IMG/VR virus record: IMGVR_UViG_3300045988_174992
Length of the DNA stretch: 64,000 nt
Reading direction: 5' to 3' (one strand)
From: a virus
Made by a program: the position numbers and the translations under genes. Shown here one piece after another: positions 3,708-44,466 of this stretch; the stretch's first letter is position 1, and the number at the start of each line of letters is the position of its first letter. A model generated the notes under the pieces. That model was given only the letters and a program-made list of their open reading frames with translations, did not search any database and had not been told where the DNA came from.

Positions 3708-5600
3708 ATGAAAAGAAAAACTAATCTATTTTATAAATCAGCAAGTCAAGATTCTAGTTTCTTAACTTTCTCTAACTATACAGAATCTTTGACAGCTAAT
3801 TTGATGTCTACTGATAACAAGATATATCCTTCTACTTTCTTATGTATCAGTATGCCAAAGCTTAATTCAAGGGATTTTGCAGTAGAATCTTACAATGAGT
3901 GGGAAGAAACTATATTAGATACAAAGAATGTATCTTATACACTTAAGACAAATGTATTTGAAAATTTTGTAATCGAAGATAGTACAAACATAAATAAGAT
4001 ATATGTTGATGATCTTGGAACTGAATATAAAGCTGGTACATTACTTAAAGAAAGTCAAGTTGAATTCTTAATGTCTACAACTATTTCTAAGACAATATTG
4101 ATAACATATAGAAATAATACTAAGCATACTAAGCTTTCTGAAAAGTCAAACAATATAAATTCTCCTTATTCTATTACTATAGAAAAAGTTTTGCTTGACT
4201 ATAAAGATGATCCAACATTTATCAACAAAAAAGATGAATTGAGTACATTCATTTGGAATAAGCAACAATTGATAAACAAGTTAGTAACTTACTATGAGAA
4301 TAAGCTAGCTTCTTTGAGAGATTTTTGTGTAGATAAAGACATGAATCAAGAATCTGTATTGCTTCCATTGAATTACTTATTAGAAACTTTACTGTCATTT
4401 GATCCATCTATTAAGATAAACTATGTAGGTGATATTACAGAGCAAGATTGGAATGGAACATTTTCTGACACTATTTGTGTAGTTGATACCAGATCATTCA
4501 AATCTGGTACTATAGTAAGTGACAATAACTATGCAATGTCTTTAGCACCAGTTGATGGTGATGATACTAAAGAAAATCCATTGAACAATTATGATAGTGA
4601 AAGATATTTGCATGGTTGGTTCACAACAAAATCTGAATATATAGAAGAATTAGATTTTGATAAAGATGAAAAGAATACAGTTTCTATAAATCCTGTTGCT
4701 ACTAACAATCTATATACTAATCTATATAGTAAGCTCAGTACAGAAGAACAGATAAAATTCAAAAGAACTCACAATATATCTACTAGTGATACCGATGATT
4801 ATAATACTTATATCATGATGGTACCAGAAGCAGATAAACAAATTCCAGAATACGTAAAGACTTTAGAAGATATAATAGAAGCATCTGAAATAAAAGAAGA
4901 ATATATAGGTCCACATTATGTAGAAGATTTGAAACCAGAATATGACAATTATGAAAATGGAACACATTATTATGAATTGACTTCACCTTTAAAAGAAATA
5001 TCTTTTACAACTCATAATGATGTAAAAGAATGGACCGAAGTATCATTCAACTTACTTATCCCATTGTTTGACTTAGTAGATATGAACTACAATACAAATT
5101 CTACTAATGTTGAATCTTCAGATCATTTGAATTTAACTAATGAAGATGAAGACAAAGAAATGTGTGTTAAGAATATGCCATTAGGCATTTGGTTCTCTGG
5201 TCCACAATTTGTAACATTAAAGTCTGATTTGTCAACTGGATTTTCTCCATCTTGGTCTTTATCATTATCTAGTCAGTTTAAGCCATTTCCTACTTCTGAC
5301 TACATGCCTAGTGAGATAACAAATGATGCTAAGAAAGAAGCTTATTGTACATTTGCACAGATACTTTCTAGACAAAATGAAGTATTGGATAAGTTTGTTG
5401 ATATGTCAAAGATAATGAATAAGCTAAGTGAAAGAGTAACTTCATTGGAATCAGCTGTTGGTTCTGTTTTGACAGCTTACAATCTTGATACATTCAGAAC
5501 TGATATAATGGATTTCAAAAACCAAATAACATATCAAGTATCTTATCTTGAAGCCTCTATTGAAGGTCTGCAGCTTCAGTGGATTCAACGTGAAGGTTAA
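3708..5600 (+). CDS. virion structural protein, function unknown (630 aa, C-terminal coiled coil)
   Basis: The track ORF starts at TTG 3690; the first ATG is 3708 (MKRKTNLFYKS). It is the first gene of a co-directional block that ends in fibre genes. Confidence 0.65.
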   Translation: MKRKTNLFYKSASQDSSFLTFSNYTESLTANLMSTDNKIYPSTFLCISMPKLNSRDFAVESYNEWEETILDTKNVSYTLKTNVFENFVIEDSTNINKIYVDDLGTEYKAGTLLKESQVEFLMSTTISKTILITYRNNTKHTKLSEKSNNINSPYSITIEKVLLDYKDDPTFINKKDELSTFIWNKQQLINKLVTYYENKLASLRDFCVDKDMNQESVLLPLNYLLETLLSFDPSIKINYVGDITEQDWNGTFSDTICVVDTRSFKSGTIVSDNNYAMSLAPVDGDDTKENPLNNYDSERYLHGWFTTKSEYIEELDFDKDEKNTVSINPVATNNLYTNLYSKLSTEEQIKFKRTHNISTSDTDDYNTYIMMVPEADKQIPEYVKTLEDIIEASEIKEEYIGPHYVEDLKPEYDNYENGTHYYELTSPLKEISFTTHNDVKEWTEVSFNLLIPLFDLVDMNYNTNSTNVESSDHLNLTNEDEDKEMCVKNMPLGIWFSGPQFVTLKSDLSTGFSPSWSLSLSSQFKPFPTSDYMPSEITNDAKKEAYCTFAQILSRQNEVLDKFVDMSKIMNKLSERVTSLESAVGSVLTAYNLDTFRTDIMDFKNQITYQVSYLEASIEGLQLQWIQREG

Positions 5601-31435: not shown

Positions 31436-32380
31436 ATGGGTGCAATACCAGGACAAATGCAAGCAAAATGCATTGATTATGGACAGAATTTCTTAACAGG
31501 ACAAGCAACTTCAGTTATTGCTGCTACTGGTATTGATATAGAAGCTGGCAATTTGAAACAGTTGGCAGATGCTGTACAAGACAAGACTATGTCTATGGTT
31601 TCTGACTTGAAGAATACAGCTACTAAAGAAGTAACTAAAATTGGAAGTCAGATAGGTGGCATGGCTGGTAGCTTAGTTGGTGCTGGATTATCTGCTATGC
31701 AAGGAGCTTTTCAAACAGCAGATGTTGCTAAGCAAGCGGTTGGAGAACTTACAACGTATGGGGTTCAACTTACTGCTAAAATCGGTACTAATATAGCAAG
31801 TATGATTGCTGCATTTCCTGCACAAGTTACCAAGAAAGCTACTGCTATAGCTGCAGAACAATGTAAAGAAGAACTTCAACAACGATTGAAAGAAGTGATG
31901 GGTACACCAGCAGAAGAGCATGCACAAAAGGAAGCAGAAAAGGAAAAAGAAAACAAAACAAAGAAAGCAATAACTTGGTGTAAGAAAGCTGTAAAAGATG
32001 TCAATGAATTCAAAGATAAGACACTGTCATCTATTCAGAAAGATTGTGAAGATATATCTGCTTTGATGATACAAGGTCCAGGTTGGGTAAACAATCAGAT
32101 GAGTGGTGCTATTGATAGTGCTAAAACATATATGTCTGATTATGCCGATGGCAAAATGAAAGATATTCAGAATCATTATGATGAAGCTGTGAATAATTCT
32201 GCTTACGCCGCAGCTACAACAATGAAGAAAAAACTTATAGATCCAACATTAGAAAAAGCTAAAGAACAATTTAATGATCTTGGAACATCAACAAATAAGA
32301 CAAAGCAAAAAGCTAAGACAGCTGTTCAAAAACAGTTGTTCAAGCTTGCAGGAAAATTAGGAATATCACCAAATGGCTAA
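31436..32380 (+). CDS. Ala/Gly-rich alpha-helical protein (314 aa), function unknown (sits where a small terminase or internal protein could be)
   Basis: ORF track; overlaps the TerL start by 8 nt. Confidence 0.5.
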   Translation: MGAIPGQMQAKCIDYGQNFLTGQATSVIAATGIDIEAGNLKQLADAVQDKTMSMVSDLKNTATKEVTKIGSQIGGMAGSLVGAGLSAMQGAFQTADVAKQAVGELTTYGVQLTAKIGTNIASMIAAFPAQVTKKATAIAAEQCKEELQQRLKEVMGTPAEEHAQKEAEKEKENKTKKAITWCKKAVKDVNEFKDKTLSSIQKDCEDISALMIQGPGWVNNQMSGAIDSAKTYMSDYADGKMKDIQNHYDEAVNNSAYAAATTMKKKLIDPTLEKAKEQFNDLGTSTNKTKQKAKTAVQKQLFKLAGKLGISPNG

Positions 32381-35174
32381 AGAATTTGAATTTGACCCAG
32401 TAAAGAGAGATAAAGGAGGAAAAGAGGCAGAAGCGGTCATCTGGAGCTGCTCAGTACTTGAAAAGGCTGTAGATGCCATGAAGAAGGGTTTGCCATTGAA
32501 AGCAAACCCTTTTATTGGTAAGAATACTAAGTTATTGAAGCCAGATCTGGTCTTCAAGCGTACACAAGAAGAGATAGAAGACTATATGCATTGTATGGAA
32601 GATCCATTGTACTTTGCTACTAAATGCTATCTTATGACTCCAACTGGTTTGCAACCAGTAATACTTCGTGACTATCAGGAAGATTATATGAGGCATCTTC
32701 AGAAAAACAGATTCAGTTTGTTCTTGAGTTGCAGACAAAGTGGTAAAACATTTTTAGAAAATACAAATGTGAAATTTTTGTTTACTAATTCATTCATAAA
32801 CAATTATAGCATTAAGTTTGGTAAACAAAAATTTACATATCTCTTTAAGAATTTCAAATATGTAAAAAGTGGATCTGATTATTTGTTTGAATTGCCTTTT
32901 TATGAGTTTCAAAACTTGTTTGATGATACTGTTTACTGGAAACTGAAATACAATCTATATAAGAAAAAGAAATATCATGCAGTAGAAGTTGTCGACTGGT
33001 TAGAATACAATTTTTTATTCCACAAGAAACTTCTTGACAATTACAAAACAACTAAAGAAATAGATATTTCCAATTATGGAATAAAAGTATTGACAGATGT
33101 TGGATATCAACCAATATCATACATTTACAATACTAAACCATTTGCAATATATAAAGTAATCCTTGAAAATGGATATTCTATAGAATGTGCAGACAAGCAC
33201 ATGTTGTTTGATGATAATTTGAATATAGTATATGCTGATGAACTTGTTGAAAGTGTTTCTAAAATAATGACAGATAAAGGACCATCTGTAGTAAAGTCTG
33301 TTTCAATATCCAAAGTAAAAGTATCTATGTGTGATGTTTCTGTGGATCATCCTTATCACAGATATTATACTAATGGAATATTAAGTCACAACTCAACAAC
33401 AACAGCTATATTCTGCCTTTGGTCGGTATTGTTCAGAAATGATAGAAATGCGTTGATACTTTCTAAATCTGGTCCAGCTGGACAAGATTTGATAAAGAAG
33501 ATAAAAGATATGTACTTGTATCTTCCTTATCATTTGAAGCTTGGTACTTTGAAGTGGAATCAATCAGAAATAGCTTTTGACAACAACTCTACAATATCTA
33601 CTGAAGCTTTCTCTCCTACTGCCGGTCTTGGTAAGACAATAAACTTCTTGATACTTGATGAGTTTGCTTGGTGCCCACCTAATGATGTAGAATTATTCTA
33701 CAACAACATTCTTCCTACTGTTACTGCAGATACAAGCTCTAATATATGTATCATGTCAACACAGAACGGATTCAATTTGTTCTATAAGCTATGGCATGCC
33801 GCAGAAACAGGAAAGTCTATGTATGCTCCATTTAAAGTAGATTGGTGGCAAGTTCCTCAATGGGATCCAGAAAATCATATTTGGAAGAAGAGAGATAATG
33901 CTTGGAAAACTATGATGGTTGGTGTCTTAGGTTCTGAAGAAGCTTTCTACTACCAATACGGTACTCAATTCTCTGCATCAGATAAATGTCTTGTATCAAG
34001 AGAATGCTTAGGTAAGATAAGAGATTTGACTTATCTGTTTGAGACACCTACAGATGATAGTTGGTATTTCAGCTTACATAAGACAGAACTTAAGTTCAAG
34101 AAAGATTATGACTTGCATTGGTTGAAGATAGGATGGTTCATCATATTGGTTGACTTAGCAGAAGGTGGTGGCAATGACTTTACAACGTTCAATATAATAG
34201 AAGTAATAGGAAAAGACAAGTTTGAACAAGTAGGATATTGGCATTGCAACACCATAGATTTGGAACAAGCTAGCTTAGAGTTTTGGGTATTGTATGGACA
34301 GCTATTCAATCCTAATAAGACTATAGTGTCAGTAGAATGGAATACTTATGGGGCTTTATTCTACAACTATCTTAAGAATTTGAATGAACCTGAATATATG
34401 CCAGAAGCAAGTTGGAGATGGCAAGTAAACCCATTAGGAGAATTTGACTTGGCTAACTTGATAAGATATAAGAAAGGCAGTCAAGAAGACAATATTGCTA
34501 ACTTGAATGGATTCAAAAACAGCAAGACAATTCCTGGAATCAGATTAAGCCATGCTACTAAGATATCTGCATGTGCATTGCTTAAGATGATGTTAGAGAA
34601 GTTTGATGTCATAATAACAGATTTGCTTACCGTTTCAGAGCTTGAGAATTTTGAAGATAAGAATGGAAATGGCAGCTATGCCGCGGCATACGGACATGAT
34701 GATTTGATAATGACTTTTGTACAACTTCCACTTCTTAAGAACACTACAAAATATAAAGATTTCATAGAAGAATGGGAGATAGAAATGAAAGCTACAGGTC
34801 AATGGGAACAAATAGAAAAAGAAGAGTCAGAAATGAAGAAACTAGATATGCTTAAGAAGATAGCAGATATGATGGCCAATGTATTGCAGAAAAGAAAAGA
34901 AGAGAAACAAGTAACTGTATCATTGAACAACAGAAATCTACCTACTGCTACTGCTGTAAATTCTTCTGATATATATAGAGAAGCACAAAGTAATGCAAGT
35001 ACCAGTATACCTAACATGTATACAATGTACAATACAAGTATGCAACAAGGATTACCATCTATGAATGACTTTTATGGGTCACCTAATGGATATGGAAATG
35101 AACCAAGCATATATGATATGCCAGGACAATACAACCAAGATCCATTGAGAGCTAGATTCAGACAATTCAACTAA
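32373..35174 (+). CDS. terL: large terminase subunit, T4 gp17-like, interrupted by a Hint/intein-like insertion
   Basis: ILRDYQEDY; Walker A SCRQSGKT, then after the insertion STTTAIFCLW (gp17: SRQLGKTTVVAIFLAHF); Walker B FLILDEFAW; MSTQNGFNLFYKLW (gp17 TTTPNGLNHFYDIW); nuclease-domain motifs VDLAEGGGNDF and YGHDDLIMTF. Confidence 0.9.
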   Translation: MAKEFEFDPVKRDKGGKEAEAVIWSCSVLEKAVDAMKKGLPLKANPFIGKNTKLLKPDLVFKRTQEEIEDYMHCMEDPLYFATKCYLMTPTGLQPVILRDYQEDYMRHLQKNRFSLFLSCRQSGKTFLENTNVKFLFTNSFINNYSIKFGKQKFTYLFKNFKYVKSGSDYLFELPFYEFQNLFDDTVYWKLKYNLYKKKKYHAVEVVDWLEYNFLFHKKLLDNYKTTKEIDISNYGIKVLTDVGYQPISYIYNTKPFAIYKVILENGYSIECADKHMLFDDNLNIVYADELVESVSKIMTDKGPSVVKSVSISKVKVSMCDVSVDHPYHRYYTNGILSHNSTTTAIFCLWSVLFRNDRNALILSKSGPAGQDLIKKIKDMYLYLPYHLKLGTLKWNQSEIAFDNNSTISTEAFSPTAGLGKTINFLILDEFAWCPPNDVELFYNNILPTVTADTSSNICIMSTQNGFNLFYKLWHAAETGKSMYAPFKVDWWQVPQWDPENHIWKKRDNAWKTMMVGVLGSEEAFYYQYGTQFSASDKCLVSRECLGKIRDLTYLFETPTDDSWYFSLHKTELKFKKDYDLHWLKIGWFIILVDLAEGGGNDFTTFNIIEVIGKDKFEQVGYWHCNTIDLEQASLEFWVLYGQLFNPNKTIVSVEWNTYGALFYNYLKNLNEPEYMPEASWRWQVNPLGEFDLANLIRYKKGSQEDNIANLNGFKNSKTIPGIRLSHATKISACALLKMMLEKFDVIITDLLTVSELENFEDKNGNGSYAAAYGHDDLIMTFVQLPLLKNTTKYKDFIEEWEIEMKATGQWEQIEKEESEMKKLDMLKKIADMMANVLQKRKEEKQVTVSLNNRNLPTATAVNSSDIYREAQSNASTSIPNMYTMYNTSMQQGLPSMNDFYGSPNGYGNEPSIYDMPGQYNQDPLRARFRQFN
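32751..33392 (+). mobile_element. Hint/intein-like insertion (214 aa) in the TerL P-loop
   Basis: In-frame insert after GKT. Block-B-like ENGYSIECADKHMLF; block F/G-like VSMCDVSVDHPYHRYYTNGILSHN followed by +1 Ser. There is no Cys/Ser at the N-junction. Confidence 0.6.
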
Positions 35175-37220: not shown

Positions 37221-37222
37221 AG

Positions 37223-37295
37223 AGCCATTAACCGGGTATGATCCGATAACCTTCTGTTTACAAAACAGATGCTCTACCAATTGAGCTATAATGGC
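37223..37295 (-). tRNA. tRNA-Thr(UGU)
   Basis: Acceptor GCCATTA/TAATGGC, D-arm GCTC-AATTGGT-AGAGC, anticodon stem TCTGT/ACAGA with loop TTTGTAA. T-loop ATCATAC is non-canonical. Confidence 0.8.
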
Positions 37296-37437
37296 ATATA
37301 AAATCAAATATGGCATCAGATGTGCAAACTATCATGACCATATTCTAGTAATACATTGAGCTATCAGGAGTACCCGTAGATTGCACTGACACCTCTAACA
37401 ACTGCCTAGTTAAATGCTAGGTCCTCTCTATTACTTG

Positions 37438-37511
37438 TGGAGATGATGGAGTATGATTCCATATAATCTGTCTTGCAAGGACAGTGCTCTATCCATTTAA
37501 GCTACATCCCC
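37438..37511 (-). tRNA. tRNA-Ala(UGC)
   Basis: Acceptor GGGGATG/CATCTCC with G3:U70, loop CTTGCAA, T-loop ATCATAC. Confidence 0.85.
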
Positions 37512-37706
37512 ATTTCTAGTACTTATTCATTGTACTAAAATATATTCTGTAGCGAATTATATGCAGAATAATATTTTATATATGTACAATGAAGTAAGGT
37601 TGGCAGGTACTAGAACCTTCAAGTGATTAGCTTGACCATATCCATTTTGAGTAGCGTTCAAAATCAAAGATTTATCACGCCGCCTCTAAATAATCGTTGC
37701 CGTTTG

Positions 37707-37779
37707 CTGGCACCCTGGGACTCGAACCCAGGACCTTGAACTTAACGGGTTCCTGCTCTACCAACTGAGCTAAGCACCA
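37707..37779 (-). tRNA. tRNA-Asn(GUU), atypical
   Basis: D-arm GCTC-AGTTGGTA-GAGC, T-arm CTGGG-TTCGAGT-CCCAG, loop CCGTTAA (C at position 33). The acceptor stem needs three G:U pairs. Confidence 0.6.
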
Positions 37780-37810
37780 ATCAATTCTTCACAGTGAATT
37801 ACTCTGTTAG

Positions 37811-37892
37811 TGATGGGTGTGGGAGTCGAACCCACTATTGTACGGCTTATGAGACCGACGTGATTTATAAATATCCGTTTCACTCACCCACG
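37811..37892 (-). tRNA. tRNA(CAU), Met/initiator-like, with 16-nt D-loop
   Basis: T-arm GTGGG-TTCGACT-CCCAC, loop CTCATAA, D-stem GTGA/TCAC enclosing AACGGATATTTATAAA, and a C1xC72 mismatch. Confidence 0.5.
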
Positions 37893-37908
37893 ATATATAG
37901 TTAACTAT

Positions 37909-38934
37909 TTAAATAATAGTATTTTCTTTTAAATATTTCAAGAATTCATTAAATTTTTCTTTAACAAAATTTTTATTTGCCTTCCCCATATCTTTTATAA
38001 TATAAGGTGTCCAACCACATTCTTCAATTTCTTTTATCTTTATTTTATCCCTATTTTGTGTTTGTTTAACAGAATGTGATTTTGTAATTTGTTTATAATG
38101 CCATGGGCCATTCCATAATACCGCAAATTTTATATCTTCTATTATTATATCTGCATCCCATCCATTAAATATACATTCATTATGTTTAATATTATTAAAA
38201 TATTCTTCACATAATTTACAGAATTCAATTTCATTTTTACTACGTCTTAAATCACCTTGATGTTGTATTCCTTTGCAACCACCATTATGTAAACCTAACC
38301 AACTTTCTTTAGAAAATAATTTACCATTGATATAATGATATCCCTTTAATTTTAATTTTTCAATTTCTTTATTTCGTTTATCTTCTAATTCTTTTAATTG
38401 GGATAAATTCAATAATTCCCTTTTAATTATTTCTATTTTCTTTGTTAGTTTTTTATATTCATAATATTCATCATCTATTTTATTAGAATTATGTACCTTA
38501 TTTATGTGTTTTGGTTTACATTCATCACACATACAAGTTTTTATTGATGCTCTTGATGATATTGTTATTTCTTTACCACATTCAATGCATTTCGCTTGTT
38601 TAGTATTTCCTGTAGATAATTTTCCTACATAAGAATGTGAACATTCAAGACTACAAAAATATTTTTTATTTATGTCAAATTTATTTTGTCTTTCCTTAAT
38701 TTTAAATTCTTTTCCACAATTAAAACATTTTACATTATATTCTAATAGTGGATTTTTTCTTTGATATGCAATTTGTAATGCTATGCCAGAATTTTTTGAA
38801 CATTTAGCAACACGTTCATCAGTTTCATTTGTAAGGCCTGAATTCCACATTAATTTATGGTTTGGATTCATTTTACAATATTTTTCATGTTGCTTTACAT
38901 TTTTATATTCTTTATTGCAATATCTACATTCCAT
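37909..38934 (-). CDS. free-standing homing-endonuclease candidate: N-terminal Cys-rich zinc-ribbon repeats plus C-terminal Vsr/DUF559-like PD-(D/E)xK domain
   Basis: CRYCNKEY...HEKYC, CFNCGKEF...CSLECSH and CIECGKE...CMCDEC clusters. C-terminus GWDADIIIEDIKFAVLWNGPWHYK...QNRDKIKIKEIEECGWTPYIIKD. Embedded in the tRNA island. Confidence 0.55.
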   Translation of the reverse strand: MECRYCNKEYKNVKQHEKYCKMNPNHKLMWNSGLTNETDERVAKCSKNSGIALQIAYQRKNPLLEYNVKCFNCGKEFKIKERQNKFDINKKYFCSLECSHSYVGKLSTGNTKQAKCIECGKEITISSRASIKTCMCDECKPKHINKVHNSNKIDDEYYEYKKLTKKIEIIKRELLNLSQLKELEDKRNKEIEKLKLKGYHYINGKLFSKESWLGLHNGGCKGIQHQGDLRRSKNEIEFCKLCEEYFNNIKHNECIFNGWDADIIIEDIKFAVLWNGPWHYKQITKSHSVKQTQNRDKIKIKEIEECGWTPYIIKDMGKANKNFVKEKFNEFLKYLKENTII

Positions 38935-38944
38935 AATTTTAATG

Positions 38945-38973
38945 ATTGTCAGACTACTTGGCAGTCTGACAAT
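38945..38973 (-). promoter_or_regulatory. 11-bp stem hairpin 11 nt upstream of the endonuclease start codon
   Basis: ATTGTCAGACT-acttggc-AGTCTGACAAT. Confidence 0.4.
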
Positions 38974-39149
38974 TTGTATGTTATTTCAAAGAATTTTCGG
39001 GGCCGAGGCATGTCCTTAAGTACCATCGTATGGGACATTTTATCAGTTTCTCCTAATCTTCAACGTGCTATATTATGAGGTAGCGCTACTTCTCTTTTCA
39101 ACGTTCCATGAACTAGTATACTCCCTGGTACGGACTCGATGTTTAATTG

Positions 39150-39223
39150 TACTCCAGGAGGGACTTGAACCCCCGACCACTTGGGTATAAGCCGAGCACT
39201 CTAACCAACTGAGTTACTGGAGT
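39150..39223 (-). tRNA. tRNA-Ile(UAU)
   Basis: Acceptor ACTCCAG/CTGGAGT, T-arm GGGGG-TTCAAGT-CCCTC region, loop CTTATAC. One C:A mismatch in the anticodon stem. Confidence 0.75.
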
Positions 39224-39237
39224 ATTTATTTATATTA

Positions 39238-39268
39238 AATATAGAACAACTATATCCAAAATTTCAAA
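39238..39268 (-). promoter_or_regulatory. minus-strand promoter motif copy D (internal to the tRNA island, spacer 13)
   Basis: Plus strand reads AATATAGAAC-aactatatccaaa-ATTTCAAA. Confidence 0.55.
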
Positions 39269-39276
39269 GAATTTTG

Positions 39277-39350
39277 TAGGTGGTATAGGACTTGAATCTA
39301 TGACCTCTTGCTTATCAGGCAAGCTATCTAACCAACTGATATAACCACCT
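39277..39350 (-). tRNA. tRNA-Ile(GAU)
   Basis: Acceptor AGGTGGT/ACCACCT, loop CTGATAA, T-arm ATAGA-TTCAAGT-CCTAT. Confidence 0.85.
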
Positions 39351-39356
39351 AAATTG

Positions 39357-39428
39357 TTGGACCACGGAGGTTCGAACTCCGAATGACAGAACCAAAATCT
39401 GTAGTGTTTCCAATTACACCATAGTCCA
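39357..39428 (-). tRNA. tRNA-Gln(UUG)
   Basis: Acceptor TGGACTA/TGGTCCA, loop TTTTGGT, T-arm CGGAG-TTCGAAC-CTCCG. Confidence 0.85.
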
Positions 39429-39437
39429 ATTTATTTG

Positions 39438-39514
39438 CGGAGCATAAGGGACTCGAACCCTTAGTTTTACTAGAGTGACAGTCTAGTTCCCTTACCAACA
39501 GGGCTTAATACTCC
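39438..39514 (-). tRNA. tRNA-Asp(GUC)
   Basis: Acceptor GGAGTAT/ATGCTCC, anticodon arm CTAGA-CTGTCAC-TCTAG, T-arm AAGGG-TTCGAGT-CCCTT. The D-arm and variable region are slightly irregular. Confidence 0.7.
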
Positions 39515-39663
39515 CAATACTGATTAAAGTCTCAGTTAGCTGCACATCAATCTCCTATGTGGCTTTTGCAATAACTTTAGTTGCAAGCAACATAAAGCGT
39601 TGATTATATCTAAATTGCTCACACATCACTTTGTCATGATTTTCATTTGTTCTTTTGACCCAG

Positions 39664-39746
39664 TGGGCAGAGAGAGATTCGAACTCCCGAAGGCCGAAGC
39701 CATTTGATTTACAGTCAAACCATTTTAACCACTTATCTATCTACCC
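39664..39746 (-). tRNA. tRNA-Tyr(GUA), long variable arm
   Basis: Acceptor GGGTAGA/TCTGCCC, loop CTGTAAA, variable arm TGGCTTCGGCCTTC, T-arm GGGAG-TTCGAAT-CTCTC. Confidence 0.85.
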
Positions 39747-39757
39747 AATTTTATTAG

Positions 39758-39829
39758 TAGCCGCAGCGAGAATCGAACTCGCCTTGACAGATCGAAAATC
39801 TGTAGTACTAACCACTATACGATACGGCC
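39758..39829 (-). tRNA. tRNA-Glu(UUC)
   Basis: Acceptor GGCCGTA/TGCGGCT, arm ACAGA-TTTTCGA-TCTGT, T-arm GCGAG-TTCGATT-CTCGC. Confidence 0.85.
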
Positions 39830-39951
39830 ATTTAGTACACCCTTATTCCATTCTGCAGCAATGGGAATGTACAAGGTCAGTAGGTTGACCAGCCTCCATA
39901 TTGGTTTATTTAAGAGAACCAACGTTAAACTGTTTTGATTAAACTCTTTCG

Positions 39952-40022
39952 TGCCAGAAGTGAGAATCGAACTCGCCTTGACAGATCGAAATCTGTAGTA
40001 CTAACCACTATACGATACTGGC
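39952..40022 (-). tRNA. tRNA-Glu paralog with 6-nt anticodon loop (anticodon-less tRNA-like RNA or pseudogene)
   Basis: The body is identical to tRNA-Glu except for a 1-nt deletion in the anticodon loop (ACAGAT-TTCG-ATCTGT), one T-stem change and a remodelled acceptor stem GCCAGTA/TTCTGGC. Confidence 0.6.
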
Positions 40023-40032
40023 ATTCAAATTA

Positions 40033-40224
40033 TTATTTTTGACATAATTGCTTGATCTTATTCTTAATTCTTTCTAGTGTTACACTAGATTCCTCATTAA
40101 ATTGATCAGTATCAATAACTGCATCTATTACCATAAGCAATTGCATGAATCTCATATCTGGAAACATCCAGGCAAATTGCTTTGTAATATCCAATATCTT
40201 AATGTTTGCTTCTAATCTTGTCAT
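40033..40224 (-). CDS. hypothetical 63-aa protein
   Basis: ORF track; preceded by promoter copy E. Confidence 0.5.
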   Translation of the reverse strand: MTRLEANIKILDITKQFAWMFPDMRFMQLLMVIDAVIDTDQFNEESSVTLERIKNKIKQLCQK

Positions 40225-40261
40225 AATAATTATGTTTTAATGTTTTATAACTTACATATAT

Positions 40262-40291
40262 AATATAGATTTGATTTATCAGTATTTCAAA
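40262..40291 (-). promoter_or_regulatory. minus-strand promoter motif copy E (spacer 12)
   Basis: Plus strand reads AATATAGATT-tgatttatcagt-ATTTCAAA. Confidence 0.55.
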
Positions 40292-40552
40292 GATCTTTCA
40301 AAAAATTTTCATTTTTTTTTTTGTTTATCAACTTTTTTAAATCAACAAAGAGCAACACATTTCTGCATTGCTCTTGTCTTGATTGTATTGTTGAATGTTT
40401 AAACAGTGGAGGCATTGTTTAAATTATACACATACAAGACTTGATATGTATAATTATATGTTCTCATTTGTTTAATATTTCTATGTTCATTAATTAATTA
40501 TAATCTATAAATAGATAAATGGTCTATAAATTTTGGTTAAATATTGTTAAAA

Positions 40553-41176
40553 TTACTTTTTTACATTCTTTAATGAATCATCAGAGAATACATATAAGAA
40601 TTTTGAACCTTTACTTAAATACAAATTAGTACGGAATTGTATACCAGTAATAAGCTTATCATCAACAATACACATAACTGGATATACATTAACAACTGCT
40701 GTACCTTCTCCTGTCTTTACATACATATCCTTTTCAAGAGTAATAATTTCTTGATTGAATATGGCATCCATCTTTTTAAGTTCTCTATCCATTTCATCAG
40801 TCAAACCCAACCTTTTAAGTTCTTTATTTGCATATAATACATTCTTAATGGTAAGTTTCTTATTTTCAATAGATGCATCTTGATCTTTAAGATATTTATT
40901 AATATTGATTAGGTCAACAAATCCACGTTGGCCAACACTATAAAGATCTGCTTTATTCTGGATGTCATCGTAAGCTTGTCTTGCATTATCATCATTTACT
41001 GCATAATAAGGACCATCACCAATAACCTTCTTACAAGCAGCCTCAAGTTCTTTATGCCGTTTCTTAGAAAAACCTACTTTTGTAAACAAATCCTTCAAAG
41101 TATCAAATTCTTCTGCATTCTTGATAATATAAGATGAATCAAGTGATTCATAAATAGATTGTACTAATGATTTCAT
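40553..41176 (-). CDS. hypothetical 207-aa protein with MKSLVQSIYE leader (CTS-like family)
   Basis: ORF track; I8/E10 leader; an A13 tract lies just upstream of the ATG on the minus strand. Confidence 0.6.
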   Translation of the reverse strand: MKSLVQSIYESLDSSYIIKNAEEFDTLKDLFTKVGFSKKRHKELEAACKKVIGDGPYYAVNDDNARQAYDDIQNKADLYSVGQRGFVDLININKYLKDQDASIENKKLTIKNVLYANKELKRLGLTDEMDRELKKMDAIFNQEIITLEKDMYVKTGEGTAVVNVYPVMCIVDDKLITGIQFRTNLYLSKGSKFLYVFSDDSLKNVKK

Positions 41177-41462
41177 TTTATTTCTTTTTATTTTTTTTTT
41201 TTTATTTCTTTTTAATGATGATTAAAAATAATATATAGATATCACATATTTTGAGATAGGTGTGTCCATCAATTCCACTATGGAAGTAATAAAATAAATT
41301 GATAGCAAGTACGTACTTCTTGCATCAGACCTTCGTGTAGAGTTTACATGGTGTTTTTAGTTATTTATCCTTAGTATGCACCGTATTTACCCACAGCTTT
41401 AAGCATACTTACCTTCATAACTCGTCTTTCTTCCTTCTCTATTCAAGATTGCTATCAATTTG

Positions 41463-41548
41463 TACTCCGAACGGGGATCGAACCCGTACAACCATTCCTG
41501 GTCAAGGGATTTTAAGTCCCTCGTGTATACCAATTTCACCATCGGAGC
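41463..41548 (-). tRNA. tRNA-Leu(UAA), long variable arm
   Basis: Acceptor GCTCCGA/TCGGAGT, arm AGGGA-CTTAAAA-TCCCT, T-arm ACGGG-TTCGATC-CCCGT. Confidence 0.85.
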
Positions 41549-41818
41549 ATTTAGGAATTACAAAAGGTGACGCTACCGGTGTCTGCACCTAAAACTTCAT
41601 TCCTGTCCATACATATAGTTATCCAGATAGTATATTATGGTGGTTTCATCTAACTTACTGACTTCTTTAGAATTCGTTAGAAGTTCTGAAGCGATCTGTT
41701 TAAGCAGATCCATAACTCGTTTACTAATCATACTTTATTCTCTTTAGGATAACATAGAGAGCCATTAGACTTCCATACTAATGTTAGACTTTCATAAATT
41801 ACATTATTTCAACGATTG

Positions 41819-41901
41819 TGGGAATAGTGGGACTCGAACCCACACGCTATTGAAGCACCAGATCCTAAGTCTGGCCTGGCTACCAATTACAGCATATTCC
41901 C
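41819..41901 (-). tRNA. tRNA-Leu(UAG), long variable arm
   Basis: Acceptor GGGAATA/TATTCCC, arm CCAGA-CTTAGGA-TCTGG, T-arm GTGGG-TTCGAGT-CCCAC. Confidence 0.85.
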
Positions 41902-41908
41902 AAATTAG

Positions 41909-41982
41909 TGGCGTAAGATGGGCTCAAGCCAACGACCTCATCAGCATGAATGATGCGCTCTAATCAACTGAGCTATTACGCC
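41909..41982 (-). tRNA. tRNA-Met(CAU), atypical T-loop
   Basis: Acceptor GGCGTAA/TTACGCC, D-arm GCTC-AGTTGATT-AGAGC, arm CATCA-TTCATGC-TGATG, T-arm GTTGG-CTTGAGC-CCATC. Confidence 0.7.
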
Positions 41983-42364
41983 ATTGTGGGCATACCCTAT
42001 TTTATAGAATTACTTCCCACATAATTCAACCATCTTAAGCAGGTGTACGAATCTCATGACAATTCGCTTGGGCGATATATTCTCTTATAATCAGAATGTT
42101 TTACGATGCTTTAAACTACTGAGCCATACAGGCCCTGACTGCATAGTGAACTTAAATGAATCAATTAGTTTAACAAGCGTTACCAAACCTTATACTTGTT
42201 ATTTCATTGACATTTAAAATACAAATGTAGGGAGGCGGCCATAGGTTTGGCTTCCTTCATCCGCGCTTTGTATATGTTTCATGCAATTACTGTGCACATA
42301 ATTGCACTACTCTTCTCAGCTACATTGTTTTTATTCAATCACCAGTATATTCTGATCACGTTTG

Positions 42365-42436
42365 GGGTTCCTTAGAGAATCGAACTCTAATAAGGAGAAC
42401 CACAATCTCCTGTCCTACCATTGAACGAAAGAACCC
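42365..42436 (-). tRNA. tRNA-His(GUG) with encoded G-1:C73
   Basis: G-1 + GGTTCTT/AGGAACC + C73, arm GGAGA-TTGTGGT-TCTCC, T-arm TAGAG-TTCGATT-CTCTA. Confidence 0.85.
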
Positions 42437-42453
42437 ATATATATTAGCAATGT

Positions 42454-42858
42454 TTATGCTACATTATTAATATAGAAATTATCTTCTAAAGTTTCATCGT
42501 AAATATCATCATATTCTTGAATTCCTTCATTGATAAGTTTCTTGTTGTTGACACGTTGCAACTTGATTTTTCGCTTAGCATCAATTTTGTCTGATACATA
42601 AGTACGATATCCAGAGCCATTCTTCAAAAACCTAGCCCACGGATCACATTTCTTCATTTCTCTCCATGAAGTTGGTCTTCTCAAATTAGGAATCATTATT
42701 GTACGTCTGATTTTCTTACCATTGGCATCATTCATGTTGAATGAATATTCTTTCTTACCATCAGTAAAAATACTATCAAACATGAACTTCTTACAACGAG
42801 AATTCCACTTTGATTCAGTCTTCTTTCTTCTCCAAGCTCTATTTCTAATGTTACTCAT
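42454..42858 (-). CDS. basic 134-aa protein inside the tRNA island, function unknown
   Basis: ORF track; K/R-rich N-terminus (MSNIRNRAWRRKKTESKW). Confidence 0.55.
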   Translation of the reverse strand: MSNIRNRAWRRKKTESKWNSRCKKFMFDSIFTDGKKEYSFNMNDANGKKIRRTIMIPNLRRPTSWREMKKCDPWARFLKNGSGYRTYVSDKIDAKRKIKLQRVNNKKLINEGIQEYDDIYDETLEDNFYINNVA

Positions 42859-42889
42859 ATATTAACAACATTTTAAAATTAAAAACTTG

Positions 42890-42961
42890 CACACCGGACT
42901 GGAATCGAACCAATACCTGCAGTTTTGGAGACTGCTAGCCTAACCATTAACCGACCGGTGC
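42890..42961 (-). tRNA. tRNA-Trp(CCA)
   Basis: Acceptor GCACCGG/CCGGTGT, arm GCAGT-CTCCAAA-ACTGC, T-arm ATTGG-TTCGATT-CCAGT. Confidence 0.85.
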
Positions 42962-42973
42962 GTATGAAATTTG

Positions 42974-43046
42974 TAGGGTAGACCGGACTTGAACCGACGA
43001 CCACTGCATCCCAAATGCAGCATTCTACCAACTGAACTACTACCCT
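42974..43046 (-). tRNA. tRNA-Pro(UGG)
   Basis: Acceptor AGGGTAG/CTACCCT, arm CTGCA-TTTGGGA-TGCAG, T-loop TTCAAGT. Confidence 0.85.
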
Positions 43047-43061
43047 TTATAAAGATATTAG

Positions 43062-43139
43062 AGCATCAGACGAGATTCGAACTCGCGAAAGCCTTCTGGT
43101 TGGAAGCCAGATGTGCACCACCAACTACACCACTGATGC
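43062..43139 (-). tRNA. tRNA-Gly(UCC)
   Basis: Acceptor GCATCAG/CTGATGC, arm TCTGG-CTTCCAA-CCAGA, T-arm GCGAG-TTCGAAT-CTCGT. Enlarged D and variable loops. Confidence 0.75.
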
Positions 43140-43146
43140 ATGTTTG

Positions 43147-43219
43147 AGCAGATGATGAGGATCGAACTCACAACTTCTTCCTTGGCAAGGAAGCACTCTA
43201 ACCATTGAGCTACATCTGC
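43147..43219 (-). tRNA. tRNA-Gly(GCC)
   Basis: Acceptor GCAGATG/CATCTGC, arm CTTCC-TTGCCAA-GGAAG, T-arm GTGAG-TTCGATC-CTCAT. Confidence 0.85.
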
Positions 43220-43292
43220 TTATACTATAACCGGGTTGACTTTGCAATAGGATCTTATTCTCTCGGCATTGCTAGTTCTCCGGTTTATTATG

Positions 43293-43367
43293 TGGTTCAA
43301 CAAAGATTCGAACTTTGGACCCTCTGCTTGTAAAGCAGATGCTCTAAACCAACTGAGCTATTGAACC
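43293..43367 (-). tRNA. tRNA-Val(UAC)
   Basis: Acceptor GGTTCAA/TTGAACC, arm TCTGC-TTTACAA-GCAGA, T-arm CAAAG-TTCGAAT-CTTTG. Confidence 0.9.
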
Positions 43368-43580
43368 AAAATACAAGAACGAGAGTTTCTATAGTCCTTT
43401 TAGCCATCGGTATCTATAGACAACATAGAAAACTTATACTAGATATATTTACTGCAGCATATATCCACTTAATATTTCTATTTGAGGAGAGCAACATTAT
43501 ATCGCGAATATGGTGTCCACTCGACGTATCAATCTCTTTCAATGAACTTCAATGTCATTATTGGTTCTTGTATGTAAATG

Positions 43581-43651
43581 ACTGCCATATTGGATTCGAA
43601 CCAATGTTGCAGGTTTTGCAGACCTGCACCTAACCACTCGGACAATGGCAG
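43581..43651 (-). tRNA. tRNA-Cys(GCA)
   Basis: Acceptor CTGCCAT/ATGGCAG, arm CAGGT-CTGCAAA-ACCTG, T-arm ATTGG-TTCGAAT-CCAAT. Weak D-stem. Confidence 0.75.
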
Positions 43652-43663
43652 TTATATATTTTG

Positions 43664-43749
43664 CGGAAGCTGTAGGATTCGAACCTACGGAACCTTTCGG
43701 TTCTCTGGTTTTCAAGACCAGTGCAATCGGCCAACTCTGCCAAACTTCC
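43664..43749 (-). tRNA. tRNA-Ser(UGA), long variable arm
   Basis: Acceptor GGAAGTT/AGCTTCC, arm CTGGT-CTTGAAA-ACCAG, variable arm GAACCGAAAGGTTC, T-arm GTAGG-TTCGAAT-CCTAC. Confidence 0.85.
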
Positions 43750-43772
43750 AATTACATATTTATATATTCTTG

Positions 43773-43857
43773 CGGAAGCAGAAGGATTCGAACCTACGGA
43801 ACCTTTCGGTTCGGCACGTTAGCAGTGTGCTGGTTTAAACCACTCACCCATACTTCC
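43773..43857 (-). tRNA. tRNA-Ser(GCU), long variable arm
   Basis: Acceptor GGAAGTA/TGCTTCC, loop CTGCTAA. Same variable arm and T-loop as tRNA-Ser(UGA). One mismatch each in the anticodon and T stems. Confidence 0.75.
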
Positions 43858-44188
43858 ATACAAGGGATTTGATATTTCAATTGCTGTTCCCTTCTTCAAT
43901 TGATTTGCAACTTCAATTGATATGATTCAACAATAACAACCTGTTACCAAACAAATTAGGACGATTTGTTTAAATAACTTTGTTAGCCATCATTAATTAT
44001 CTCTTGAACTTTTTTCGGCTGTCGCCCATACAAAGTAATCTGTGTAATTATTGGTCTAGTCCAATTAAATTCAACCTTCTTACACACGATCAACAAAGAC
44101 ATTCACATGGATTTGTTGATTATCCAGATGTTAATGATGTTGAGCTTCTCATTCTTTTACATTATCAGCAGAGATCTCTTGACTACCA

Positions 44189-44277
44189 TGGTGTTCCATA
44201 CGGGACTCGAACCCGTGACCCTCCGATTAAAAGTCGGATGCTCTCTAGCCTTGCGGAACCAACTGAGCTAATGGAAC
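44189..44277 (-). tRNA. tRNA-Lys(UUU) with about 12-nt D-loop insertion and encoded 3' CCA
   Basis: Acceptor GTTCCAT/ATGGAAC + ACCA, arm TCCGA-CTTTTAA-TCGGA, T-arm ACGGG-TTCGAGT-CCCGT, D-loop AGTTGGTTCCGCAAGGCTAGA. Confidence 0.75.
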
Positions 44278-44307
44278 TTAAATAAATATTTCAAAGAACT
44301 TAATTAG

Positions 44308-44382
44308 TGGTTCTGACGAGACTCCAACTCGTGACCCGGAATTTAGAAGATTCCTGCTCTAATGCAACTGAGCTACAGAACC
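44308..44382 (-). tRNA. tRNA-Arg(UCU)
   Basis: Acceptor GGTTCTG/CAGAACC, arm GGAAT-CTTCTAA-ATTCC, T-arm ACGAG-TTGGAGT-CTCGT. Confidence 0.85.
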
Positions 44383-44393
44383 AATTAATTTTG

Positions 44394-44466
44394 TGGGTAA
44401 AGATGGATTCGAACCAACAACACCTAGATCTTCAATCTAGTGCTCTACCATTGGAGCTATTTACCC
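44394..44466 (-). tRNA. tRNA-Phe(GAA)
   Basis: Acceptor GGGTAAA/TTTACCC, arm CTAGA-TTGAAGA-TCTAG, T-arm GTTGG-TTCGAAT-CCATC. Confidence 0.85.

Follow-up and report, generated by a model that had tools for sequence, protein, structure and literature searches.

We analyzed a 64,000-nucleotide stretch of virus DNA (IMG/VR record IMGVR_UViG_3300045988_174992; hereafter the window), which is part of a genome of ~290 kb and carries a gene for the large terminase subunit, terL. The gene is an uninterrupted open reading frame (ORF) of 933 codons plus stop on the plus strand (32373..35174). Its product is a T4-type large terminase: it matched terminase large-subunit PHROGs (E-values of 4e-31 and 9e-24) and the Pfam domains Terminase_6N (amino acids 341-481) and Terminase_6C (amino acids 592-672), both under the curated cut-offs, and a tblastn search with TerL gave 2571 phage records with terminase matches. 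The genes located 5' of terL are common to relatives that have a T4-type portal gene some genes further upstream. Within the precursor, the N-extein (amino acids 1-125, 32373..32747) ends with ...LSCRQSGK, that is, Walker A through its Lys, and the C-extein (amino acids 341-933, 33393..35171) comprises the remaining ATPase domain, the nuclease domain and a C-terminal tail, as judged from the PHROG, Pfam and tblastn matches. The segment between them is an intein whose first residue is Thr (Thr1) and which probably uses this residue to start its own excision.

The junctions were fixed with the help of intein-free orthologs. A search of a 5.8-billion-protein collection provided 120 close or intermediate relatives, 14 of which lack the insert (including P0066-68, P0071-73, P0075, P0076, P0078, P0089, P0092, P0094 and P0118) and read straight across the site as RQSGK/STTTAIFCLW... 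or RQAGK/SVTTAIF... (the slash marks the insertion site). The intein-free orthologs are 74-83% identical to the window TerL over the aligned extein region. Because they read RQSGK/STTTAIF, the insert must start at Thr126 (32748) and comprises 215 amino acids (T126-N340, 32748..33392), with Ser341 as the +1 residue. An earlier reading of this DNA, made from the sequence alone (the original prediction), had put the start at 32751 and the length at 214 amino acids, and had itself proposed an alignment to intein-free orthologs; this alignment moved the start one codon upstream. The insert separates the Walker A Lys from its Ser (GK/S); it is in frame, and the intein-free alleles are colinear across the site. 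As the alignment shows, the Thr that seems to complete 'GKT' is residue 1 of the intein and not part of Walker A, and the mature Walker A is GK-S, with its Ser supplied by the C-extein. Ser341 (33393..33395, plus strand, as are all features of terL described below) would then be both the C-extein nucleophile and, after ligation, the Walker A Ser. In Walker A ATPases, an insert kept between the P-loop Lys and Ser should abolish ATP binding, and the expectation that removal is needed for ATPase function was borne out in so far as the insert does separate these two residues.

Several independent methods were in agreement with the proposal that a Hint/intein element is inserted in the TerL P-loop. 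The Pfam model Intein_splicing matched the isolated insert with an E-value of 1e-4, which is under the curated cut-off, and aligned only from amino acid 223 onward; a comparison with intein models had been suggested as a check. In a phmmer search against PDB sequences, the best matches were VidaL (6vgv, E-value 7e-6), gp41-1 (7e-5) and the consensus TerL intein CatC (6dsl, 5e-4), and the C-terminal motif HP.HRYY..GI.SH was nearly identical in the window intein and VidaL. An AlphaFold2 model of the intein had a mean predicted local distance difference test score (pLDDT) of 90.7 and a predicted template modeling score of 0.85, with 179 out of 225 residues at or above 90. When this model was compared with the PDB by Foldseek, the top match was again VidaL (6vgv, E-value 1e-8), with an alignment of 221 columns that takes in the N-terminal strand. 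A total of 55 PDB chains were matched at E-values up to 1e-3, and all of the 50 matches listed were inteins or intein-like (BIL) Hint domains; the probability was 1.00 for the VidaL, gp41-1, DnaB, RecA, GyrA and RadA inteins. On the basis of these results, the insert is a bona fide intein with a predicted Hint/horseshoe beta fold. The window copy is a contiguous mini-intein without an endonuclease domain, and it belongs to a large family of inteins in the P-loop of phage TerL.

The splicing blocks could be assigned along the whole insert. Block A (N1), TFLENTNVKFLF (32748..32783), lies at the junction and provides the first Hint beta-strands (residues 3-8 and 12-18 of the model); it opens with Thr126 (codon ACA, 32748..32750), the proposed N-terminal nucleophile. 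The strings quoted in the original prediction (RQSGKT, TFLENTNVKF, GIKVLTDVGYQPISYIY, ENGYSIECADKHMLF, VSMCDVSVDHPYHRYYTNGILSHN and STTTAIF) are all present in the TerL ORF, but two of them take other roles than were given to them. TFLENTNVKF, described there as block-A-like, is block A itself, and GIKVLTDVGY (GIKVLTDVGYQPISYIY), described as a displaced block A, aligns in phmmer to VidaL residues 31 onward, a later strand downstream of block A. Block B (N3), YSIECADKHMLF (33174..33209), contains an invariant A-D-x-H, in which His276 (33198-33200) is B:10 and the equally invariant Asp is B:8; B:7 is Ala instead of the usual Thr, as it also is in VidaL. Block F (C2), VKVSMCDVSVDHPYHRYY (33315..33368), has invariant Met319, Asp321 (F:4) and His329-Arg330, and a variable Cys320 (F:3). 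At Ser318-Met319-Cys320 (33324..33332), positions F:1 and F:3 co-vary as S..C or C..G/F/M. Block G (C1), TNGILSHN (33369..33392), ends with the penultimate His339 and the terminal Asn340, as supported by the alignment and phmmer. Read from the sequence, the splicing apparatus is that of an ordinary class 1 intein (junctional block A, His276, Asp321, His329, His339-Asn340 and Ser341) with the exception of Thr at residue 1.

Between blocks A and B, an F/N/K/Y-rich stretch of ~75 residues follows the first strands. A role as mere filler is not supported: in the AlphaFold2 model it is a confidently folded helical/hairpin subdomain, and its ratio of nonsynonymous to synonymous substitution rates (dN/dS) of 0.23 indicates purifying selection. 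It begins with a clade-specific insertion of two helices (amino acids 139-160, 32787..32852; model residues 19-29 and 32-40, pLDDT > 90), which is missing in the shorter relatives P0055, P0057, P0058 and P0063. This is followed by a hairpin (YLFELPFYEF), a short helix (QNLF) and a further helix (WKLKYNLYK), which together occupy amino acids 163-197 (32859..32963); the hairpin plus short helix reads YLFELPFYEFQNLF, and the family consensus is LP.FEL.NLF. In split family members, the N-fragments stop right after the ...LYK helix. The next helix, YHAVEVVDWLEYNFL (amino acids 201-215, 32973..33017; model residues 81-95), is homologous to M..YILYKLISLLDFIDY, the start of the split C-fragments.

The distribution of residue 1 was then compared across the family. 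Among 96 distinct contiguous relatives, 54 have Thr, 39 have Cys and 3 have Ser at this position, and nothing else was found. The statement that the first residue here is neither Cys, Ser nor Ala is correct, and the suspicion that a canonical Cys/Ser start had been misplaced does not hold for the window, whereas close relatives do have Cys or Ser at exactly the same position. Block B A-D-x-H, block F M-x-D and H-R, the terminal S-H-N and Ser+1 are invariant in all 96, so that the catalytic Asp321, His329, His339, Asn340 and Ser341 are kept throughout. The Thr1 inteins show 36-99% pairwise identity, fall into several deep lineages and retain all catalytic residues; one subclade (P0102-P0111) is uniformly Thr1. 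Protein clusters with Thr1 have up to 908 member sequences, and Thr1 alleles occur on contigs of 244-286 kb. A sequencing or assembly error at the Thr codon could be excluded: the Cys1 alleles L003, L004, L008 and L009 (93-96% identical) have TGC at this codon, which differs from ACA at three nucleotides, and ACA recurs in the independent assemblies L001, L002, L005-L007 and L010. In a comparison of the window with the Cys1 allele L003 (dS about 0.3), the intein had a dN/dS of 0.21, and the exteins had values of 0.04-0.05. In the closest pair of Thr1 and Cys1 inteins (P0030 and P0034), 7 out of 221 positions differ, none of them catalytic, and no columns co-varying with Thr1 versus Cys1 could be observed beyond phylogenetic signal.

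Outside this clade, Cys1 was found in 26 out of 26 contiguous representatives, and all fetched IMG/VR N-fragments outside the group nearest to the window are also Cys1. Thus, Thr1 is a derived speciality of AT-rich (31% GC) phages of ~290 kb and their relatives. Ser1 alleles use TCT and Thr1 alleles ACT or ACA, which fits an available stepwise codon path (TGT > TCT > ACT > ACA). At least 15 changes of the residue-1 state were counted by parsimony on a crude neighbor-joining tree; these should not be read as 15 independent mutations, because inteins are mosaic between lineages, and part of the switching represents recombination rather than repeated mutation.

Considering these data together, the reading that we favor, with a probability of about three in four, is that a contiguous mini-intein in the Walker A of TerL splices by the class 1 mechanism, started by Thr1. 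The hydroxyl of Thr126 would attack the carbonyl of Lys125, and the resulting N-O acyl shift would give a linear ester. Ser341 would then take over the N-extein by transesterification, cyclization of Asn340 would free the intein, and an O-N shift would remake the peptide bond, leaving RQSGK-STTTAIF with an intact P-loop. The view of the insert as lacking an N-terminal nucleophile is not supported: Thr carries a hydroxyl, class 1 has been defined by Perler's group as Ser1, Thr1 or Cys1 (PMC5222942), and a mutant intein with Ser1 replaced by Thr (S1T) has been reported to splice (PMC2807308). The invariance of the catalytic residues, the selection on the intein, its spread and the split alleles described below are all consistent with a functional Thr1 form.

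Some points weigh against this reading. As a nucleophile, a secondary alcohol is inferior to a thiol. Cys1 has been reported to resist exchange for a residue with an alcohol side chain (PMC10189870), and B:7 holds Ala where Thr is usual. Motif NX, which Pasch et al. found in Ser1 inteins (PMC10189870), is a [K/R]-His located ~40 residues upstream of the block B His; it was not evident upstream of His276 when alignment A1 (32 family members with five extein residues per side) was inspected by eye at the sequence level. An intein-free terminase gene may be present elsewhere in the ~290-kb genome, outside the window. It should also be noted that the mechanism is deduced from sequence conservation, the predicted fold and population data.

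Other accounts of the Thr1 intein have to be weighed. The first, which we regard as unlikely, is an undescribed chemistry, in which either a Thr-specific activation of the secondary alcohol operates on a scaffold that works just as well with Cys and has neither the His of motif NX nor a Thr at B:7, or the residue-1 side chain is bypassed. If true, this would be a new mechanistic variant, and the alternation of Cys and Thr would reflect selection, for example, for a redox-insensitive or a slow, timed activation of the packaging ATPase.

A little less likely is that the Thr1 allele is splicing-dead or crippled, so that TerL would be non-functional, depend on co-infecting Cys1 phages or a second terminase gene for rescue, or work with the insert kept as a permanent domain. 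The reported resistance of Cys1 to alcohol replacement (PMC10189870) and the presence of Cys1 in all 26 contiguous representatives outside the clade would be in line with such a defect, and the window covers just part of the genome. However, more than half of the distinct contiguous sequences (54 of 96) are Thr1, from several deep lineages (36-99% identity) and including the whole of P0102-P0111, which is difficult to reconcile with a dead allele. Every catalytic residue is kept, and dN/dS values of 0.21 (intein) and 0.04 (exteins) point to purifying selection in alleles that occur on contigs of 244-286 kb and whose clusters comprise as many as 908 members. As stated above, an insert retained between the P-loop Lys and Ser should ruin ATP binding. 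No second terL, and no second copy of the intein, is present in the 64-kb window, and split Thr1 alleles such as L001 yield full-length TerL only via trans-splicing.

Less likely again is splicing that does not involve the side chain of residue 1, either by a class-3-like route from an internal Cys (for example, Cys320) or by a class-2-like route in which Ser341 attacks the Lys125-Thr126 bond directly. Such a route would account for a residue 1 that is neither Cys nor Ser; a Ser at +1 is shared with most class 3 inteins (PMC2807308), and the block F Cys adjoins the catalytic Asp, with exactly one Cys at F:1 or F:3 in nearly every member. On the other hand, the class 3 triplet is missing, as B:12 is Leu278 instead of Trp, F:4 is the invariant Asp321 instead of Cys and G:5 is Ser338 instead of Thr. 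The one-Cys pattern is the same in Cys1 alleles. In relatives, some of them Thr1, position 320 holds Gly, Val, Phe or Met in place of Cys, with Cys then usually at F:1, and neither position is Cys in three Thr1 inteins (P0059, SMVD; P0063, GMVD; P0100, SMGD). The alternation of residues along a beta-strand should place F:1 and F:3 on the face opposite to F:4, which suggests that a Cys there packs the core and is not catalytic. KlbA inteins, which have Ala1 and a direct attack by the +1 residue, are the only known class 2 inteins (PMC2807308), whereas Ala1 never occurs in this family and the +1 residue is Ser. Furthermore, the restriction of residue 1 to Cys, Ser or Thr in 96 out of 96 sequences would be expected only if its side chain is used. 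The residues in blocks B, F and G, together with the Thr1 members that lack a block F Cys, exclude a class 3 or internal-Cys mechanism, and with it the class-3-like route that the original prediction had considered.

Finally, the AT-rich composition and biased amino-acid content of the first ~95 codons of the insert, and the Pfam alignment that starts only at amino acid 223, might have pointed to a separate DNA-level insertion (an intron or mobile element) that is in frame by chance, but an intron or RNA element could be excluded and this account is highly improbable, given that no Rfam family (group I and II introns included) reached its gathering score anywhere in terL, that the region is under selection at the protein level (dN/dS of 0.23), packs on the Hint core with pLDDT above 90 and is covered by the whole-length Foldseek alignment to VidaL (221 columns, N-terminal strand included), and that the motifs LP.FEL.N and WK.KY.LYK persist in relatives with as little as 36% identity and recur in split N-fragments.

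Twelve of the 120 relatives begin inside the intein (M..YILYKLISLLDFIDY...LLDNYKTT). One of them, P0053, is 94% identical to the window TerL over its C-terminal 79%, and its locus contains three ORFs: TerL-N with a 100-residue N-fragment (Thr1), a 392-amino-acid ORF, and a C-fragment fused to TerL-C. In L001 and L002, this arrangement lies within one locus, where TerL-N plus the N-terminal intein fragment (IntN) has 225 amino acids and Thr1, and the C-terminal intein fragment (IntC) plus TerL-C has 737 amino acids. In L001, IntN accounts for 100 residues and IntC, which is followed by Ser+1, for ~146. In L001, L002 and L010, the exteins are 92-94% identical to those of the window, and the 392-amino-acid ORF overlaps both neighbors. 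A segment at this position measures 1.26 kb in L001 (4817-6075) and 67 nucleotides in the window (32963..33029), where no such gene is present; the DNA that flanks it on either side is 91-93% identical between the two. With this arrangement, TerL of L001 and L002 is obtainable only by trans-splicing. The 392-amino-acid ORF (L001 4826..6004; L002 2983..4161) starts within the IntN ORF and ends in an ATGA overlap with the start of IntC. Repeated 'EYY.KKYP....EEC.K' units make up the N-terminal half of its product, and the C-terminal part contains EFNGDYWH. A weak, sub-threshold match to a restriction-endonuclease fold (Pfam PF18741, E-value 4e-4) was obtained, and presumably this ORF encodes a putative homing nuclease that fractures terL. 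The helical/hairpin subdomain of the intein would be the site at which the nuclease gene of related phages splits it into two trans-splicing halves.

The window copy is a contiguous state of this split site, either empty or re-sealed. In P0095, a contiguous Thr1 intein of 258 amino acids, an in-frame remnant (EESKKIKEYYQKYFPSLTEEECEKIKKEK) of the N-terminal repeat of the nuclease ORF is located exactly at the split point, which suggests the decay or re-sealing of a once-fractured allele. The N-part of the L001 intein (4598..4816, corresponding to 32748..32962 of the window) is a different allele, TNFFTIKCSFIF…, similar to P0054 and P0059. Since it differs in spite of exteins that are 91-93% identical, intein segments are exchanged between phages that are nearly identical in other respects.

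A profile built from alignment A1 was used to search 1.84 billion cluster representatives, and 2202 proteins were identified at E-values up to 1e-3, 172 of them at E-values up to 1e-30. The matches are mostly C-fragments that head a TerL C-part. We also found 460 IMG/VR loci encoding a relative; in most of the 80 loci that were fetched, a separate upstream ORF ends with R-Q-x-G-K-C plus 37-80 residues, and the N-fragments of split relatives overall have 37-100 residues. Judging from these sequences, most members of the TerL P-loop family in public collections are naturally split close to the N-terminus.

With regard to the gene neighborhood, the start codon region of terL (32373..32380) overlaps the final codons of a preceding ORF of 314 amino acids, which is rich in Ala and Lys (31436..32380). 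The overlap is also kept in L001 and L003, and this conservation suggests a possible translational coupling of the two genes. An array of 25 tRNA genes is located on the minus strand ~2 kb downstream of terL (37222..44466). It includes tRNA-Thr(UGU), which reads the Thr1 codon ACA, and tRNA-Cys(GCA); another member (39951..40022) was given a two-base anticodon by ARAGORN ('tRNA-???'), yet scored 43.6 bits with the Rfam tRNA model.

Among known systems, VidaL (6vgv/6vgw), a split intein of ultra-short length obtained by engineering, most resembles the window intein, both by sequence (E-value 7e-6) and by fold (E-value 1e-8); they share HP.HRYY..GI.SH and a block B of the form C-A-x-x-H, with Ala at B:7. 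The VidaL N-fragment has 16 amino acids. Similar to AceL-TerL, GOS-TerL and Cat-TerL, the family is inserted at RQxGK/[ST] of TerL and is mostly split near the N-terminus. The reported N-fragments have 25 amino acids in AceL-TerL and 37 in GOS-TerL, the latter equal to those of one group of the present family (PMC11766414). The window intein differs from the atypically split inteins (VidaL, AceL-TerL and GOS-TerL) in that it is contiguous (cis), encoded within one ORF, and has ~75 extra residues, comprising two helices plus the helix pair that flanks the split point. Moreover, AceL-TerL has Cys1/Cys+1 and GOS-TerL Ser1/Cys+1 (PMC11766414), whereas both junction nucleophiles of the window intein (Thr1 and Ser+1) are hydroxyls. 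The three-ORF loci of L001, L002 and L010 resemble the fractured genes of Dassa et al. (2009; PMC2677866), whose hosts include a phage terminase and whose nucleases have a Vsr-like restriction-enzyme fold; the window intein itself is unfractured and has no nuclease gene, and the nuclease label of the 392-amino-acid ORF corresponds to one sub-threshold Pfam match plus the EFNGDYWH motif.

Two other groups also deserve comparison. In the cysteine-independent Ser1 inteins (PolB16 OarG and Aes123 PolB1/CL; PMC10189870), both nucleophiles are hydroxyls as well, and both intermediates would be oxyesters. PolB16 is likewise split near the N-terminus and likewise comes from a gut metagenome (PMC10189870). 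The differences are that residue 1 of the window intein is Thr, a secondary alcohol, that the motif-NX [K/R]-His is not evident in it, and that the Ser1 inteins are a specialized subgroup (PMC10189870), whereas the present scaffold also occurs with Cys1. Class 3 inteins (MP-Be DnaB and MchDnaB1) are likewise phage-borne, with a residue 1 other than Cys or Ser and with Ser or Thr at +1, and the class 3 structures 6rix and 6bs8 rank high in the fold comparison, as would be expected for any Hint domain. However, the WCT triplet is absent here (Leu at B:12, Asp at F:4 and Ser at G:5), and residue 1 of the family is always nucleophilic.

Thus, Thr1 is the new feature; in all other respects, both the intein family and the type of insertion site are known. 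In 2009, it was stated that there was no known natural Thr1 intein, and position 1 is still given as Cys or Ser alone in reviews from 2021 and 2025 (PMC8529194; PMC11766414). No described natural Thr1 intein was found in the full-text literature that we searched, whose coverage does not extend to most subscription journals. The terminase P-loop is a common target of inteins and homing nucleases, which makes the insertion as such ordinary for phage biology. The finding should surprise phage biologists little and interest intein biochemists and tool builders to a moderate degree. Split cysteine-free inteins that are active at ordinary temperatures are sought as protein-engineering tools, and a count by Pasch et al. 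(2023; PMC10189870) arrived at only two of them; the AT-rich ~290-kb phages add further candidates in the form of their split Thr1/Ser+1 relatives. Position 1 chemistry defines the mechanistic classes of inteins, and the Thr1 clade consists of natural, evidently successful inteins in an essential phage gene. With Cys1, Ser1 and Thr1 on a near-identical scaffold, in both contiguous and split forms, the family offers a ready comparative system in which it could be asked how a hydroxyl, here a secondary alcohol, is activated for the N-O acyl shift and why Cys1 is hard to replace.

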